Below the pieces are notes generated by a model that was not told the origin of the DNA, did not search any database, and saw only the letters and a list, made by a program, of their open reading frames with translations. Position numbers and translations under genes: made by a program. From Escherichia phage APCEc01, in sequence record NC_029091.1: a DNA stretch of 64,000 nucleotides. The stretch is one strand, 5' to 3'. Shown piece after piece: positions 1-61,062 of the stretch. Numbering within the stretch: the first letter of the stretch is position 1; each line of letters starts with the position of its first letter.

Positions 1-1130
1 ACTTTCTCTTGGTCTTCTTTCTTTAATTTGTTCCCAGTAGTTTCTTGGAATCCTTCTAAAGCACGTCCTTCTATTTCGTCCGCGGTATCACCAAAACCTA
101 TAGCACGCAATATAGACGCGGAGAGTTTAGCCATTCCTAATTGAATTAGTTCACCTAAGTTCATTAATGCTGTTCCTACACCTTTGACAATAGCAACGGT
201 TAAACCACCCCAGTCTCCAGCTTCCCACAATTGTTTTATAGAGTCAATAGAAGTGAATATATCACTTAAGAATTTACCCCACTCTTTAGCTTCATCGGAG
301 AATTTAGTAAAGTTTTCATCAAATAAATCCCAGGCAGAAGTGAACTTGTCTGTCCAATATTTGAAATGGACTATCAATAAATCAATACCGATAACAATAC
401 CAAGAATAAGTGCGGCCATTTTTGCTGCTTCAATAGCAGCCGTTATAGTGTATTTGAAAAGCATTCCAGCAATTCTGTCTGAAATTGATATTGATTTATT
501 AAACCCGGTTTGAACTGTTTTGGTGAGCATTGCAATTTTATCGCTCAATTTAAAGCTAATTCCGCCTTTAGAATCGGAAGTAGAATTAGCACTTTCTTGA
601 ACCGGTGCTGGGAAGAAATCTTCGTCTGGCTTATTATCAATCTTTTCAGGTGTAGGGAATGCTTTAAACAACTCATCAGAAGTTTCATTCTCAACCACTT
701 TAACAGGTATTGCGTTCTCAATTACTTCAAGAGAGGTGCCTCCTGTATTTTGAATAGCGGTAGATGTTTGTAATTTTTGCTCTAATAATGTAGCTAATCG
801 GTCTAACTTAGAGCTTATTGCACTAGAAACTTCGTTTATACCTTTAGTGACTTCAGTTTGTTTTTCAATAACTTCTGCGATAAGCTCTGTGCCTTCAGCA
901 GTATTATCTGTCGAATTCTTTAAGTCTCCAATTGATTCAATAATTCCATTGCCTTTATCTTCTACACTTTGTGATGTGAGTTCAGACGCGGCTTGGACAT
1001 CGTCTAGTTTTGATGAAATGTTATTCAATGCTTCTAATGAATCGGTAGCTGCATCAGCAGCTACTTTTTGTGGTTTATTATCGGCAATGACCTTATTTCT
1101 ACGCATGGATTTCATTTCTTCAGGTTTCAT
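1..1130 (-). CDS. 29: gp29 baseplate hub / tail-length determinator, partial (N-terminal ~376 aa; C-terminus lies beyond window start)
   Basis: Minus-strand frame opens with ATG at 1130 overlapping gp28 stop (ATGA); translation [21 protein letters not shown]... matches T4 gp29 as recalled; synteny 51-27-28-29. Plus-strand ORFs 184-1346 are shadows. Confidence 0.7.
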   Translation of the reverse strand, partial: MKPEEMKSMRRNKVIADNKPQKVAADAATDSLEALNNISSKLDDVQAASELTSQSVEDKGNGIIESIGDLKNSTDNTAEGTELIAEVIEKQTEVTKGINEVSSAISSKLDRLATLLEQKLQTSTAIQNTGGTSLEVIENAIPVKVVENETSDELFKAFPTPEKIDNKPDEDFFPAPVQESANSTSDSKGGISFKLSDKIAMLTKTVQTGFNKSISISDRIAGMLFKYTITAAIEAAKMAALILGIVIGIDLLIVHFKYWTDKFTSAWDLFDENFTKFSDEAKEWGKFLSDIFTSIDSIKQLWEAGDWGGLTVAIVKGVGTALMNLGELIQLGMAKLSASILRAIGFGDTADEIEGRALEGFQETTGNKLKKEDQEK

Positions 1131-2780: not shown

Positions 2781-3529
2781 TTTTTATGGTCCTTTTCTAC
2801 TAATGTTAAAGCAATACCACGTTCAACAGGAATCATTTGCATAATAGAATCCAATGTGTATTGACTCTTTACTAGTGAATGGTTTATCTGATAGAATGTA
2901 AAAATCTCATCAGGGTTAACTAACAATTTAAAAACCTCTAAGATATCAGTATATGTTTTAACATGTCGTTCACAACAACCTAATCTAAGGGTCAAATTAA
3001 TAGGGTTCATAGAAGCAATAACCTTCTCGAGCGAGTCAATGTCTATTGCTTCTATTACTTGGATTTGGTTCTCTTCAGTCAAATCATTCCATGGGTACCA
3101 TTCGTCATTATAATATATTTCTTTTATGTTTTCACTTATCATTAATGCCTTGTTGTCATAAAACTTTTCAGGGAAAGAAAAACGTATTTTTATACCAGCA
3201 ACATCAAGTTCAGGTTCGACTAGTTCTTTTTGATATATCTCAAATGGTGCAGTTTTTTCTTTAGAGCATTTAGGGCAAGTGAAAATAACGGGAACTTTTG
3301 TTTTGCCTATAGAGCCTGCAAAAACTTGCAGGAATATAAATGGTTGCCATGTTTTAGGATACTCGCCAAAATAATCATCAATCAGATCGGCAATTATTTC
3401 TTTTTGTTCTTGTGGCGAACGATGTTCGATATCATTTCTAACTAGTAAAAAGTCTCTATAATCCGCTACGGTGAACGGCTTGAAACGATGAACACCATCC
3501 GGTAATTTACAACGAATTATATTAGCCAT
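2777..3529 (-). CDS. 51: gp51 baseplate hub assembly catalyst
   Basis: 250 aa, position upstream of 27, size as T4 gp51. Confidence 0.8.
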
Positions 3530-57239: not shown

Positions 57240-57554
57240 ATGAAAACGTATAAAGAATTTATTGCAGAATCCGCCAACCAACGCGTTGAAGGTGGTTATA
57301 TTTGGATTGAACAAGTTGAGCCACCGAGCCGCACTTCTACAGGTAAATGGAAAATTACTGTTGACGGTCCTGGCGGTAAACGTAGGACTCTTAAAGAAAT
57401 TAACGGGTACTATGAAGAAGCTCTTTCGGATGCAGGAACTTACATGATGCAAATCATGATTAAAAACCCTGAAAACCGTTTTGCAGCTAAAGTCTTCCGT
57501 CGTATTGGTAATAAACTTTATGATGCATACTCTAAAAACTTCCCTAAAGAATAA
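57240..57554 (+). CDS. internal-protein-like protein with CTS MKTYKEFIAE (104 aa)
   Basis: N-terminus almost identical to T4 CTS consensus. Confidence 0.6.
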   Translation: MKTYKEFIAESANQRVEGGYIWIEQVEPPSRTSTGKWKITVDGPGGKRRTLKEINGYYEEALSDAGTYMMQIMIKNPENRFAAKVFRRIGNKLYDAYSKNFPKE

Positions 57555-57579
57555 CATAAATTAAAACAATAGGAACAAA

Positions 57580-57909
57580 ATGAAAACATATCAGGAGTTT
57601 ATCACTGAAGTTACATTATCTGCGGAACAGAAAGCTGCTATCGAAGAAGGTAAAAATCCCAAAGTAACATACAAAGTAAATAGTAAAGGCGTTTTTGATG
57701 GCTTGGTTCAAGACCCTGAATTGAAAAAAGCTCTTTCTAAAACTAATGCGTACTTTGCTCCTAAATTTAACACAGCCGGTGTACTTATTGGATTGGACGT
57801 ATTCAACTCTAAAGGTGTTCTATCTAATGCCTTTGGTTATGCCGCTAACAAAATTACCAAAGCAGCATGGGAATCCAATACCAAACAAGCTCAAAAGCCT
57901 AGAGTATAA
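57580..57909 (+). CDS. internal-protein-like protein with CTS MKTYQEFITE (109 aa)
   Basis: N-terminus matches T4 CTS consensus. Confidence 0.6.
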   Translation: MKTYQEFITEVTLSAEQKAAIEEGKNPKVTYKVNSKGVFDGLVQDPELKKALSKTNAYFAPKFNTAGVLIGLDVFNSKGVLSNAFGYAANKITKAAWESNTKQAQKPRV

Positions 57910-58082
57910 TTCTTGCCTAATAAAGGGAAACGCAACCTCTCCTCATGAACGTCGAGTCCTCTGAGTGATGTACCTTTTCCAACCTGTAATAAGGTCGAGC
58001 CCAAGTGCGGTAATGGGTTTACATAGCGAGTCGAAGGACCTAACATGTGCCACGGAATGGCCCAAACCTTAAGAGAAATAAT

Positions 58083-58622
58083 ATGAGAACATTTTTAACT
58101 GGACCTTATCTATCCCTGATGAATGCTTTTACACACCATTCTGATGCTAGAGTAGAAGAAATTTGTAAGAACGGTTATGTCCCACCATTTGAAGACGTAC
58201 TCAAGCAGTACTGTACACTTCGTTTAGACGGCGGCCGACAATCAGGTAAATCAATTGCTGTGACTAACTTTGCTGCTAATTGGCTGTATGATGGCGGAAC
58301 AGTTATTGTTCTTTCTAATACTTCAGCTTATGCTAAAATTTCTGCTGGCAACATTGAAAAAGAATTTTCGCGTTATTCTAGCGACGATATTCGATTCCGT
58401 TTATTTACTGATTCTGTTCGTAGTTTTATTGGCAATGAAGGTTCTAAATTCCGTGGATTAACGCTTTCTCGTATTCTGTATATAATTGACGAGCCTATTA
58501 AAGCTCCTGATATGGATAAGATTTACAATGTACATATTAAAACAGTCCAACACTGTTGCAAAAGCAAATATTGCATCGGCGGTAATGCTCGTCCTCAATT
58601 TTTTGTGATTGGAATGCAATGA
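58083..58622 (+). CDS. P-loop NTPase of unknown function (179 aa)
   Basis: Walker A GGRQSGKS and Walker B-like ILYIIDEP; first ATG at 58083 (track start is GTG). Confidence 0.5.
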   Translation: MRTFLTGPYLSLMNAFTHHSDARVEEICKNGYVPPFEDVLKQYCTLRLDGGRQSGKSIAVTNFAANWLYDGGTVIVLSNTSAYAKISAGNIEKEFSRYSSDDIRFRLFTDSVRSFIGNEGSKFRGLTLSRILYIIDEPIKAPDMDKIYNVHIKTVQHCCKSKYCIGGNARPQFFVIGMQ

Positions 58623-58927
58623 TGACCACTATTGAAGTTTTTGAATATTGTTATAACAGCCCAGTATGCAATAAAAGGGCCCTTGTAGAAAATTACGAGA
58701 TTTACCATTTTAAACCTAAACGATACCGTTTGACTAAAGGTCCGTTCGCAGGGCAGCAGGTTCTTTGTACTGCTCCTAATGCACGGTTGATGACTAGTAT
58801 TCCACATTTCAAAATGGAATTTATTGACGGGCCATTTAAGGGATTAATCACTCAAAGTTTAATGGCGTTTAATTCCGACCCATTTTTGATTAAAGAAAAA
58901 ACTTGGATAAATTTATTTTCTAATTGA
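58619..58927 (+). CDS. hypothetical protein (102 aa)
   Basis: ATGA overlap with upstream gene. Confidence 0.45.
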   Translation: MMTTIEVFEYCYNSPVCNKRALVENYEIYHFKPKRYRLTKGPFAGQQVLCTAPNARLMTSIPHFKMEFIDGPFKGLITQSLMAFNSDPFLIKEKTWINLFSN

Positions 58928-58933
58928 GGTTAT

Positions 58934-59296
58934 ATGAAAGCATATCAAATTCTTGAAGGCACACACAAAGGCACTATTTATTTTGAAGACGGTACTCAAG
59001 CCCGGATTATTGTCTCTAAGACTTTTAAAGAAGACGCTATTGTAGACCCGGAAATTTTCTACGGTTTGCATGCCCGTGAAATTGAAATTGAACATCACCC
59101 TAAAGTTAAAATTGAAGGTGGTCAACATCTGAACGTTAACGTTCTGCGTCGTGAAACTCTAGAAGATGCAGTTAAGCATCCAGAAAAATATCCGCAGCTG
59201 ACCATCCGTGTATCTGGTTATGCAGTTCGCTTTAACTCTCTGACTCCGGAACAGCAGCGCGACGTTATCGCTCGCACCTTTACTGAGAGTCTATAA
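58934..59296 (+). CDS. grcA: autonomous glycyl radical cofactor (GrcA/YfiD-like; T4 Y06I-type)
   Basis: 120 aa; C-terminal glycyl radical motif [27 protein letters not shown]; C-terminal ~57 aa match E. coli GrcA as recalled; host-like codon usage in 3' half. Confidence 0.8.
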
Positions 59297-59520
59297 TGGC
59301 TAAATTGATTATAGAAGGGTCTGAAGATGTTTTAAAATGTTTTGCCGCCTGGTTTAGTTGCTCAGGCGAGCAATCATTCACTGAAGCATTTAGAATGGGT
59401 GATATTACCGGAAACTATCCGGCAACTGATATCACTGTACGTGGATATGGTATTAATGAGCCTATCCAATTGGTCGAATATGACCTTGCCACTGATGAGG
59501 AAATTCCTTATGTCGATTGA
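59296..59520 (+). CDS. hypothetical protein (74 aa)
   Basis: overlapping stop/start with grcA-like gene. Confidence 0.45.
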   Translation: MAKLIIEGSEDVLKCFAAWFSCSGEQSFTEAFRMGDITGNYPATDITVRGYGINEPIQLVEYDLATDEEIPYVD

Positions 59521-59776
59521 AGACATCAAAGGCTACAAGCCGCATACCGATGATAAAATCGGTAAAGTGAACGCTATTAAAGATGCAGAAGTCCGTCTTG
59601 GATTGTTGTTTGATGCTCTGATTGAAGAAGCATATATCTTGAAAGAAAATGAAACAGAGCAACAAACCAAAGAAGATATGGATGCAGTGCAGGCTCTTAA
59701 GTATGCTAAGCAACATCTAAAAGAAGCCAGCATGTGGGCGTGTCGTGCAGTATTTCGACCTGAGGAAAAATACTAA
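59511..59776 (+). CDS. hypothetical protein (88 aa)
   Basis: ATG at 59511; longer track ORF from 59342 overlaps the upstream gene and is less likely. Confidence 0.4.
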
Positions 59777-59991
59777 TGGCTTCTACTATTACTGGGTTAT
59801 TGGACTTTCAAGAAAAGGTCAACAAAATTTGTAGTGAATACTTAAAGTATCTTGAAGAAGACCTTGAAGATTGTAAGGAAGAAGGCGAAGAAGACTATGC
59901 TGACCAGCGTCGACGCCAAATCGAAGAGATGAGGCATTTCGCCAATATGGTATCTAAAGAATCTTGGGCTTTAACTCCATTTTATCAATAA
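59776..59991 (+). CDS. hypothetical acidic protein (71 aa)
   Basis: ATGA-type overlap, SD AGGAAA. Confidence 0.45.
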   Translation: MASTITGLLDFQEKVNKICSEYLKYLEEDLEDCKEEGEEDYADQRRRQIEEMRHFANMVSKESWALTPFYQ

Positions 59992-59995
59992 AGTA

Positions 59996-60044
59996 GTTTA
60001 CTTCTCCTCTAGTTGTGTTACTATAGACCTGTCAACTAGAGGAG
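59996..60044 (+). promoter_or_regulatory. early promoter (GTTTAC, 17 nt, TACTAT) inside perfect 12-bp inverted repeat that includes the SD
   Basis: CTCCTCTAGTTG at 60004-60015 and CAACTAGAGGAG at 60033-60044. Confidence 0.6.
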
Positions 60045-60052
60045 AAATCAAA

Positions 60053-60511
60053 ATGACTATCAATTCAGACGTTTTTATCCGCCGTAATAAACTCCGTCGA
60101 ATCTTTGAAACGGAGTTCCGCAAAATAAATGCCGGTATAAAAGATGCTGCAAAGTCTCTTGGACTACCAGGCTTTCATATCAAGTATTCTCAACATCTCT
60201 TAGATCGTGCCATCCAGAGAGAAATAGATGAGAATTACGTTTTTGAATTATTTCATAAAGTAAAAAATCATGTTAAAGAAGTTGCAGAATTTTTATCAAT
60301 GCCGGCACGTCCAGATGTTGATGAAGATTTTGTCGAAGGTGTCGAATATCGCCCAGGCCGTTTAGAAATAACTGATGGAAATCTTTGGTTAGGACTTACA
60401 GTTTGTCGCGAAAATCCGGCATTCAAAATGAAGACTCTTCAATGCAGAATGGCTATTATTAACAATAAACGACTACCAGGAAAAGCTTCTAAAGCAGTGA
60501 TTAAAATCTAG
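60053..60511 (+). CDS. regB: RegB site-specific endoribonuclease
   Basis: 152 aa; MTINSDVFIRRNKLRR...KYSQHLLDRAIQREIDE...LQCRMAIINNKRLPGKASKAVIK matches T4 RegB as recalled. Confidence 0.9.
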   Translation: MTINSDVFIRRNKLRRIFETEFRKINAGIKDAAKSLGLPGFHIKYSQHLLDRAIQREIDENYVFELFHKVKNHVKEVAEFLSMPARPDVDEDFVEGVEYRPGRLEITDGNLWLGLTVCRENPAFKMKTLQCRMAIINNKRLPGKASKAVIKI

Positions 60512-60519
60512 AGGTAAAC

Positions 60520-61062
60520 ATGAGAAAAGCACTACTCGCTGGTCTATTTGCTCTTTCATTATCAGCACATAGCTCCGAGCATACTTTTAGTAATGTCCAA
60601 CTCGATAACTTGAATTATGCTTATCAGTTTGGGGAACAGTTTTCTAAGGATGGAAAATTTAAAACGCATGAAAATATGCATAAGAAAGGACTTGGATACA
60701 TAATGGCCGCAATACTATGGCAGGAATCATCTGCCGGTATTAATCTTAAAGATAAGAAAGGTCACCATGCGTATGGAATGTTCCAAAATTATCTACCGAC
60801 AATGAGGGCAAGAATTAACCAGCTTGGTTATAATATGACTGATGCCCAAATTAAGAAAATGCTATCTAAGCGGTCTAATTCAGCCAGATGGGCTTATATC
60901 GAATTTTCTTATTGGTTAAATATACATAACGGGGATATAAGAAAAGCTATATCCTCATATAATGCGGGATGGAAGACAAGTGCCGGAAGTAAATATGCTT
61001 CTGAAGTCCTAGAAAAGGCTAATTACCTTAAATCAAATAAACTACTGGAAATAAAAGAATGA
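60520..61062 (+). CDS. secreted lytic transglycosylase-like protein (SLT domain)
   Basis: signal peptide MRKALLAGLFALSLSAHS; SLT motifs E-S (WQESSAG), AYGMFQ, YNAG. Confidence 0.6.
   Translation: MRKALLAGLFALSLSAHSSEHTFSNVQLDNLNYAYQFGEQFSKDGKFKTHENMHKKGLGYIMAAILWQESSAGINLKDKKGHHAYGMFQNYLPTMRARINQLGYNMTDAQIKKMLSKRSNSARWAYIEFSYWLNIHNGDIRKAISSYNAGWKTSAGSKYASEVLEKANYLKSNKLLEIKE

Follow-up and report, generated by a model that had tools for sequence, protein, structure and literature searches.

The open reading frame (ORF) at positions 58083-58622 of a 64,000-nucleotide (nt) stretch of Escherichia phage APCEc01 DNA (NC_029091.1; the whole stretch is referred to as the window) is, by sequence, the RB69-group ortholog of T4 vs.8 (PHROG 1488), and profile comparison shows its product to correspond to N-subdomain I, the ATPase core, of the T4-type large terminase (TerL), present as a stand-alone copy. 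This identity, together with the terminase-type ATPase fold, is assigned with high confidence. As read from its motifs, the nucleotide site of Vs.8 is complete, comprising a P-loop with the terminase-type arginine, an RG motif, and a Walker B motif in which Glu directly follows Asp. The gene, its P-loop, and its terminase-like nature are already known: Evans et al. [quoted passage not shown] The present analysis reproduces the family assignment independently and adds the coupling of vs.8 to vs.7, the fast divergence of the protein with an intact active site, a correction of the start codon, and a conserved non-coding element upstream of the gene.

The window derives from an RB69-like T4-type phage (Mosigvirus), whose region 57500-60600 shares 98.3-98.8% DNA identity with RB69, vB_Eco_F31, and relatives, and 97.2% with PhiC120. 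The ORF product is 90% identical in amino acids (aa) to residues 41-219 of T4 Vs.8 (NP_049732) and matches the PHROG 1488 profile with an E value of 2.7e-78 (residues 3-179 on profile positions 2-177 of 177). RB69 annotates the gene as vs.8, and its place after denV and the internal-protein genes and immediately before vs.7 is the same in the RB69, T4, JS10, and PKO111 annotations; one close relative annotates the identical 540-nt ORF as 'p-loop containing nucleoside triphosphate hydrolase'. An earlier note on this DNA, made from its letters, had described a 179-aa ORF with a Walker A (GGRQSGKS) and a Walker B-like (ILYIIDEP) motif and had taken the product for a small P-loop nucleoside triphosphatase (NTPase), too small for a helicase. 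Both motifs are present as claimed and are invariant or nearly so in the family, fold prediction agrees with them in giving a confident single RecA-like domain of the ASCE (additional strand, catalytic glutamate) class, and the 179-aa chain holds no second RecA domain.

The AlphaFold2 model of Vs.8 (predicted local distance difference test, pLDDT, 82.4; predicted template modelling score, pTM, 0.84) is a single alpha/beta RecA-like ASCE domain with five strands, in which the pLDDT falls below 50 only in a variable Cys-rich loop at residues 162-168. The relationship to terminases comes from two family alignments, A1, with 21 sequences down to 38% identity, and the wider A3, with 41 sequences down to 17%. 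Alignment by hhalign of the 41 Vs.8-family sequences with 24 T4-type TerL ATPase domains, gathered with the window's own gp17 as the query, gave a probability of 97.4% and an E value of 1.4e-11 over 124 columns, with the P-loop, RG, and DE motifs of Vs.8 placed on those of gp17 (Table 1). When 177,635 PDB sequences were searched with the A3 profile, the top three matches were T4 gp17 (E values of 3.8e-4 to 1.2e-3), followed by a signal-recognition-particle receptor at rank 4 (0.0019) and then by P74-26 TerL. Furthermore, PHROG 2 (terminase large subunit) was matched by 25 of the 41 family members, with a best E value of 3.9e-8, and the P-loop arginine shared by Vs.8 is a recognised feature of large terminases, referred to as the cis-arginine or sensor (PMC5727402). 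Single-sequence searches of Vs.8 against Pfam, NCBIfam, PADLOC, and PDB sequences returned nothing significant, BLASTP against the window's own gp17 gave no significant match, and the narrower A1 profile did not resolve the terminase link among PDB sequences; in an hmmsearch of the A1 profile over the 269 window ORFs, gp17 ranked second, at an E value of only 0.076. The link is thus resolved solely by the broader A3 profile and by profile-profile comparison.

The chain of Vs.8 ends right after the fifth core strand and therefore lacks a lid subdomain, a nuclease domain, and a second RecA domain, and it is thus neither a terminase, a helicase, nor a kinase; no nuclease domain was matched in Pfam or PHROGs. 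The C-motif strand of gp17 reads IIITTT and the end of Vs.8 reads FFVIGMQ, and the hhalign alignment stops short of this strand; the last strand of Vs.8 is presumably equivalent to the gp17 IIITTT strand, such that the chain would stop where TerL enters the C-motif and the lid. In A1, no sequence deviates from D49-G-G-R-Q-S-G-K56 or from E137-P138, and conservation of D136 reaches at least 90%; even in A3, R52 and G55 are still conserved at 90% or above. The C-terminal end is similarly constrained in A1 (G177 and Q179 invariant; F173, F174, and V175 at least 90% conserved), and the N-terminal 16 residues, M-x-x-F-L-T-x-P-Y-L-S-L-M-N-A-F, are kept family-wide down to 38% identity.

The conserved N terminus also bears on the gene model. 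The open frame extends over 58047-58622 on the plus strand if an upstream GTG is counted, and the ATG at 58083 yields 179 aa. On the 5' side of this ATG the DNA is conserved at the nucleotide level only, and indels of one and five bases interrupt the frame there; the conserved first 16 residues and the frame-breaking indels upstream together identify ATG 58083 as the vs.8 start. It is preceded by a Shine-Dalgarno-like AAGAGA, at a position where relatives carry a purine-rich AGAG or GGAA block. The RB69 annotation starts the gene 36 nt later, at Met13 (NC_004928 63240; L001:3619), which loses 12 conserved residues, and T4 Vs.8 is annotated as a 219-aa protein whose 40-residue N-terminal extension (NC_000866 64793-64912; L003:6794-6913, minus strand) translates the conserved non-coding element described below; several database entries of 194-196 aa begin within hairpin H3 of the same element. 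The public vs.8 starts in T4 (the extension) and RB69 (Met13) are probably mis-annotations, and the extra residues of T4 are very probably not made.

Vs.8 is restricted to a narrow group of phages and is retained there almost without exception. A word-indexed protein search returned 28 clusters, every one from T4-like phages, and an exhaustive profile search of 1.84 billion representatives returned just 56; the members are stand-alone proteins of approximately 150-185 aa, apart from three of 233-259 aa with N-terminal extensions. By tblastn (E <= 1e-3), vs.8 is found in 1008 phage records, full-length in 1006 of them, with hosts that are all Enterobacterales. A T4-type terminase is present in 2111 records, 990 of which are at least 80% identical to the window gp17; vs.8 is thus near-universal in, and restricted to, enterobacterial Tevenvirinae. 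In Klebsiella and Serratia T4-like phages, Vs.8 is approximately 35-45% identical and gp17 82-84% identical (two listed phages); outside the motifs, Vs.8 thus diverges at the sequence level much faster than gp17. The conservation pattern establishes strong purifying selection on the TerL-type nucleotide site of this fast-evolving, almost always retained accessory protein. In a distant metagenomic branch (P0056, P0060, P0065, P0066, P0074, P0075), SGK[ST] is replaced by SGH[ST] with the P-loop Arg kept, and the DE of Walker B is replaced by D-C/V-A/S, i.e., the Walker B Glu is missing; this branch, of which the one member looked up (P0056) comes from contigs all shorter than 600 bp, may be a non-hydrolysing derivative.

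Vs.8 appears to be one half of a pair. The vs.8 stop and the vs.7 ATG overlap in ATGA (58619-58622), an arrangement that indicates translational coupling of the two genes. Among 35 related IMG/VR loci, an ORF downstream of vs.8 was found in 32; in 31 of these its start and the vs.8 stop share 4 or 1 nt, and in 29 it encodes a Vs.7 homolog as detected by jackhmmer. The overlap is also present in JS10 and PKO111, and the genes beyond vs.7 differ among phages. On this genomic pattern Vs.8 and Vs.7 look like a two-gene module, with Vs.7 as the obligate-looking partner. Vs.7 has no P-loop and, in the Pfam and PHROG searches, no family match beyond PHROG 2049 (function unknown); a protein search returned three relatives, which carry the Pfam identifier PF26834. 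A side case is the distant 163-kb phage PP397179.1 (L058:2840-4516), apparently T4-like by gene content, in which the Vs.8-family protein P0053 has no coupled vs.7-like gene and is encoded two genes 3' of a glycyl-radical protein of 217 aa, such that the vs.8/vs.6 neighbourhood is kept and the vs.8-vs.7 pairing is absent.

Table 1. Coordinates of vs.8, its motifs, its neighbourhood, and the upstream element (window positions unless another sequence is named).
Feature	Position	Strand	Basis or remark
vs.8 coding sequence, 179 aa + TGA (58620-58622)	58083..58622	+	ORF; PHROG 1488; T4/RB69 comparison; AlphaFold2
Shine-Dalgarno-like AAGAGA, 6 nt 5' of the vs.8 ATG	58071..58076	+	read from the sequence
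Walker A/P-loop GGRQSGKS, residues 50-57, with terminase-style arginine R52	58230..58253	+	invariant in A1
RG motif R124-G125, ahead of Walker B	58452..58457	+	invariant in A1; hhalign onto R245-G246 of T4-type TerL
Walker B ILYIIDEP, residues 131-138, catalytic-type Glu137	58473..58496	+	conservation; hhalign onto gp17 D255-E256
Last beta-strand and C-terminus FFVIGMQ, residues 173-179	58599..58619	+	conservation; strand 172-176 in the AlphaFold2 model
Profile alignment, span	Vs.8 30-156; gp17 140-275		hhalign
Profile alignment, P-loop	Vs.8 G51-R-Q-S-G-K-S57; gp17 S161-R-Q-L-G-K-T167		hhalign
Profile alignment, RG	Vs.8 R124-G125; gp17 R245-G246		hhalign; invariant in T4-type TerL
Profile alignment, DE	Vs.8 D136-E137; gp17 D255-E256		hhalign
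gp17, the phage's genuine large terminase, 611 aa	20613..22448	-	translation has SRQLGKT, MIYIDE, IIITTT
vs.7, 102 aa	58619..58927	+	PHROG 2049; RB69 annotation
vs.6, GrcA-like autonomous glycyl-radical cofactor	58934..59296	+	Pfam Gly_radical, E 2e-18; RB69 annotation
vs.5 homolog	59296..59520	+	RB69 annotation; PHROG 1986
vs.4, Acb2-family sponge (anti-CBASS)	59510..59776	+	Pfam PF24729 Acb2_Tad1_hairpin, E 4.4e-18; RB69 annotation
Short 71-aa homolog of T4 Vs.3/TadIV-1 (RB69ORF117c)	59776..59991	+	40% identity over 65 aa, E 8e-12
regB	60053..60511		ORF list; RB69 annotation
Conserved non-coding element	57940..58066	+	near-invariant across genera
P1 hairpin of the element	57940-57968
Core of the element, ~40 nt	57980-58017
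Hairpin H1 ACCT/AGGT, inside the core	57982-57995
Hairpin H3 GCCA-CGGAA-TGGC	58049-58061
Core in rV5-like Vequintavirinae (slur16)	~570 nt upstream of tRNA cluster		~119 records with the full-length version
Core in ~150-kb phi92/ESCO13-like phages (PsgM04F, phiWec188)	between tRNA-Thr and tRNA-Gly
Core in N4-like Klebsiella phages (KpCHEMY26, Pylas)	1-kb non-coding gap, ~1.1 kb from tRNA-Leu
Core in Vibrio phages			22 records matching the core
Core in individual loci	L061:1501-1543; L062:1501-1539; L065 ~1255-1300

As the earlier note had stated, the gene is the first in a run of six small ORFs that precedes regB, namely vs.8, vs.7, vs.6, vs.5, vs.4, and a short vs.3 homolog. Through the match of vs.4 to Acb2_Tad1_hairpin, the block carries an Acb2-family sponge against the cyclic-oligonucleotide-based anti-phage signalling system (CBASS). 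TadIV-1, a sponge that acts against type IV Thoeris, is the product of T4 vs.3, and a short group of Vs.3 homologs of approximately 70 aa failed to inhibit this system (PMC13243611); the RB69ORF117c-type ORF of the window lacks the N-terminal approximately 20 residues of T4 Vs.3, and from the reported inactivity of the short form the window phage may be sensitive to type IV Thoeris.

We propose that Vs.8 is an accessory protein whose action depends on adenosine triphosphate (ATP). Judging from its motifs, it would bind ATP and probably hydrolyse it, and ATP binding is very probably needed for its function. Translational coupling would keep Vs.8 and Vs.7 at a constant ratio, and the two may well work together; the position of vs.8 in the early accessory region suggests that it is probably expressed early, and Vs.8 would not itself package DNA. 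Co-expression of vs.8 with EcAvs2 is toxic, and Vs.8 has been modelled in the terminase pocket of EcAvs2 with a bridging ATP (PMC13601566); since Vs.8 resembles the ATP-loaded ATPase domain of terminase, EcAvs2 can take it for terminase. Its native role would lie in host interaction or counter-defence that exploits this mimicry, for example through contact with factors whose recognition target is the TerL ATPase fold. Evolution of Avs2 towards recognition of anti-defence proteins has been suggested as a possible origin of such non-terminase activation (PMC13601566), and the neighbouring Acb2-family sponge and TadIV-1 homolog were counted in favour of a counter-defence role. This role of Vs.8 as a counter-defence protein or terminase mimic is the weakest step and is put forward tentatively. 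The explanation as a whole, i.e., a TerL-type ATPase core that is ATP-dependent, coupled to Vs.7, and engaged in accessory host interaction, is considered reasonably probable.

Several observations weigh against this explanation. As regards the fold, Pfam Terminase_6N was matched by 21 of the 41 family members, but these matches did not reach the threshold and did not surpass those to the generic models AAA_14 and AAA_30, and Foldseek searches of the PDB gave weak, generic ASCE matches with template modelling (TM) scores of 0.4-0.5; a fold search alone cannot tell a terminase from the RecA1 domains of helicase superfamilies 1 and 2 (SF1/SF2), and sequence profiles can. The case for ATP hydrolysis by Vs.8 consists of its motifs, and the His-for-Lys replacement and missing Walker B Glu of the distant branch imply that hydrolysis is not the conserved function there. 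The AlphaFold2 model of Vs.7, built from four sequences, reached a pLDDT of 51 and is unusable, which leaves a Vs.8-Vs.7 complex without structural support. The toxicity with EcAvs2 represents a defence that is activated, not inhibited, and lends no support to a decoy role at EcAvs2; when Vs.3 to Vs.8 were each expressed alone from 'the promoter of vs.8', type IV Thoeris was inhibited by Vs.3 only (PMC13243611). Finally, gene neighbourhood in the accessory regions of T4 is weak evidence of function.

Other roles can be set against the accessory host-interaction role. Vs.8 might be an accessory of the packaging motor that binds gp17, gp16, or the portal gp20 as an extra or inhibitory subunit and tunes or delays the terminase ATPase or nuclease. 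It is a paralog of the gp17 subdomain that holds the ATP site, with the TerL RG motif retained, and large terminases form rings whose active sites are completed between subunits (PMC5727402). By contrast, vs.8 lies 36 kb from gp16/gp17, in an accessory region outside the late packaging operon; its product evolves far faster than gp17, which is unexpected in the partner of a slowly evolving motor; and the gene is missing from approximately half of the records with a T4-type terminase (1008/2111). A packaging role is accordingly held to be improbable. The pattern of family-wide conservation, which covers Walker A, RG, Walker B, and the N-terminal helix and leaves most other positions variable, would also suit an enzyme or sponge with which Vs.7 and Vs.8 bind or hydrolyse either an immune signal that is a nucleotide or derives from one, or a toxic nucleoside triphosphate, particularly in a block in which two genes encode nucleotide sponges or sponge homologs (Acb2 and TadIV-1). 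This function also appears unlikely, given that ASCE domains of the terminase/helicase type are not known as sponges, that Vs.8 matched no PADLOC or anti-defence family, and that it did not inhibit type IV Thoeris.

The remaining alternatives are less probable still. Were Vs.8 a minimal RecA1-type module and Vs.7 its second half, the pair could act as a split helicase in early RNA or DNA remodelling; yet Vs.7 has neither a P-loop nor a family match, Vs.8 shows no evident counterpart of the helicase motifs Ia, Ib, and III (SAT), and the profiles favour terminase over helicase, such that there is little reason to expect this role. A decaying relic, left over from a duplicated terminase gene and no longer functional, or a set of chance motifs, is suggested by a short, dispensable-looking product that is truncated relative to TerL and by the fragments found in a few phages (57 aa in T2 and 133 aa in vB_EcoM_Lutter in BFVD; a three-piece match in SV76). 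It is effectively excluded by the conservation pattern: the gene is full-length in 1006 of 1008 records, the motifs are invariant down to 38% identity, the model is confident, and the translational coupling is conserved. Equally remote is a small nucleotide kinase of the deoxynucleoside monophosphate (dNMP) or thymidylate kinase type with an ordinary metabolic role, a competing assignment that the earlier note had named; a length of approximately 180 aa and a P-loop would suit it, but no kinase family was matched in any library searched and no kinase-type fold was found.

The 173-nt non-coding gap before vs.8 contains the conserved element introduced above (Table 1), whose blocks are nearly invariant even where the Vs.8 proteins share just 35-39% identity and whose single-base indels exclude coding. 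The helices vary in a compensatory manner: H1 changes from ACCT/AGGT to GCCT/AGGC, the helix flanking the core from CCC/GGG to CTGG/CCAG (in the L035/L055 group, referred to as type-II variants), and H3 from GCCA/TGGC to GGCA/TGCC, GACA/TGTC, and CAGCA/TGCTG, with a loop that always holds GGA. H3 sits 10-22 nt 5' of the vs.8 Shine-Dalgarno sequence, and a second conserved A(A/T)GGAC lies approximately 20 nt upstream, at ~58034-58039 (AAGGAC). The GGA loop and this motif resemble paired binding sites of the CsrA/RsmA type, and may represent such sites. In a 22-sequence alignment, 92.9% of cells were paired, versus 87.4% in shuffles, and 0 of 500 shuffles reached the observed value; three pairs showed changes on both sides, with a covariation score of 0.182 versus 0.080, and slid registers all scored far lower. 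The structure was derived from the same sequences, and this support is therefore suggestive, not decisive. The single-sequence fold of the element is no better than shuffles (z = +1.35), and the helices that RNAalifold detected are all short and receive little covariation credit or none. A sigma-70-like match at 58018-58046 was considered as a promoter and rejected, as it is not conserved in the T4 group or the type-II variants. Some T4-like phages have the element twice in tandem (in L029 and L041, upstream of position 3000); the two copies have diverged, the second with GGTCAGCCCGCGGCGGTAAGGGG in place of GGTCGAGCCCAAGTGCGGTAATGGG and with compensatory changes that keep a small CCG/CGG stem.

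The core of the element reads AAC-CTGTAAWAAGG-TCRAGCC-NNNG-NGCGGTAATGRG. Four further phage groups carry it with hardly any change, in three of them near transfer RNA (tRNA) genes and not beside vs.8. In each examined group a hairpin immediately precedes the core, constant in position and variable in sequence (CCTCAT/ATGAGG, CACAT/ATGTG, GAATGT/ACATTC, and GAGTG/CACTC), and in T4-like phages the core is followed by the vs.8-specific GGA-loop hairpin and then by the ribosome-binding site. No Rfam family matched the element or the core in any context and no tRNA or transfer-messenger RNA (tmRNA) was called there; the core is unlike T4 rnaC and rnaD, is absent from 5,426 E. coli genomes, has one match in 185,579 species genomes, on a metagenome-assembled contig, and its sequence string was not found in a literature search. 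Hairpin covariation makes RNA the most likely nature of the motif, which reads as an uncurated, horizontally spread phage non-coding motif common to Tevenvirinae, Vequintavirinae, Stephanstirmvirinae-like, N4-like, and probably Vibrio phages, and which may be a stable RNA or a regulator. Given its presence in virulent phages that are not otherwise related, this unannotated element is a candidate for a new RNA of phages. In Klebsiella phage KpCHEMY26, the 1-kb non-coding gap (L065:1068-2070) holds the core and a GAGTGCTCTTTYCGTTGTG-like unit repeated approximately four times, with weak, sub-threshold tmRNA-like Rfam matches at L065 1698-1833; the gap is possibly an array of small RNAs. The fullest form of our proposal, in which Vs.8 and Vs.7 constitute an ATP-dependent terminase-mimic counter-defence module that immediately follows a new non-coding RNA motif spread horizontally among phages, is doubtful and is offered as speculation.

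Vs.8 is one of the few non-terminase phage proteins reported to trip a terminase-sensing receptor that resembles the nucleotide-binding leucine-rich repeat (NLR) receptors, Avs2, and, this liability notwithstanding, almost every T4-like phage of enterobacteria retains the gene at full length. To know the task of a free-standing terminase ATPase core at the start of infection would explain why this cost is paid and would show whether terminase mimicry counters immunity; the residues to mutate, as indicated by the present analysis, are K56, R52, R124, E137, and Q179.

Among known systems, the closest is T4 Vs.8, an ortholog with matching gene position and Walker A and B motifs, of which the window protein is the RB69/PhiC120-group variant. 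The ATPase N-subdomain I of gp17 (PDB 2o0h; Pfam PF03237) is the counterpart of Vs.8 in a protein of 611 aa versus 179 aa; unlike gp17, Vs.8 lacks the lid (subdomain II), the nuclease domain, and the portal-binding region, presumably has G-M-Q, at its extreme C-terminal end, in place of the TTT C-motif, and has its own conserved N-terminal helix, a location in the accessory region, and a far faster divergence. Solo P-loop proteins of approximately 150-170 aa from other large phages (e.g., Proteus phiP4-3, Vibrio JSF10, Aeromonas Aes012, and Pseudomonas 201phi2-1; BFVD) are uncharacterised and comparable to Vs.8 in size and in their predicted single-domain fold (Foldseek E values of 1e-7 to 2e-3), with just 15-24% identity to it. 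Ksap1 and Ksap2 are, like Vs.8, small, lineage-restricted proteins of unknown function that trigger terminase-sensing Avs2; both reportedly look like the ATPase fold of terminase and fill the same pocket (PMC11564622; PMC13601566). Ksap1 was shown to be the trigger during infection, whereas vs.8 is reported for toxicity on co-expression only (PMC11564622; PMC13601566); unlike Ksap1 and Ksap2, Vs.8 shows genuine sequence homology to TerL, and its nucleotide site is intact.

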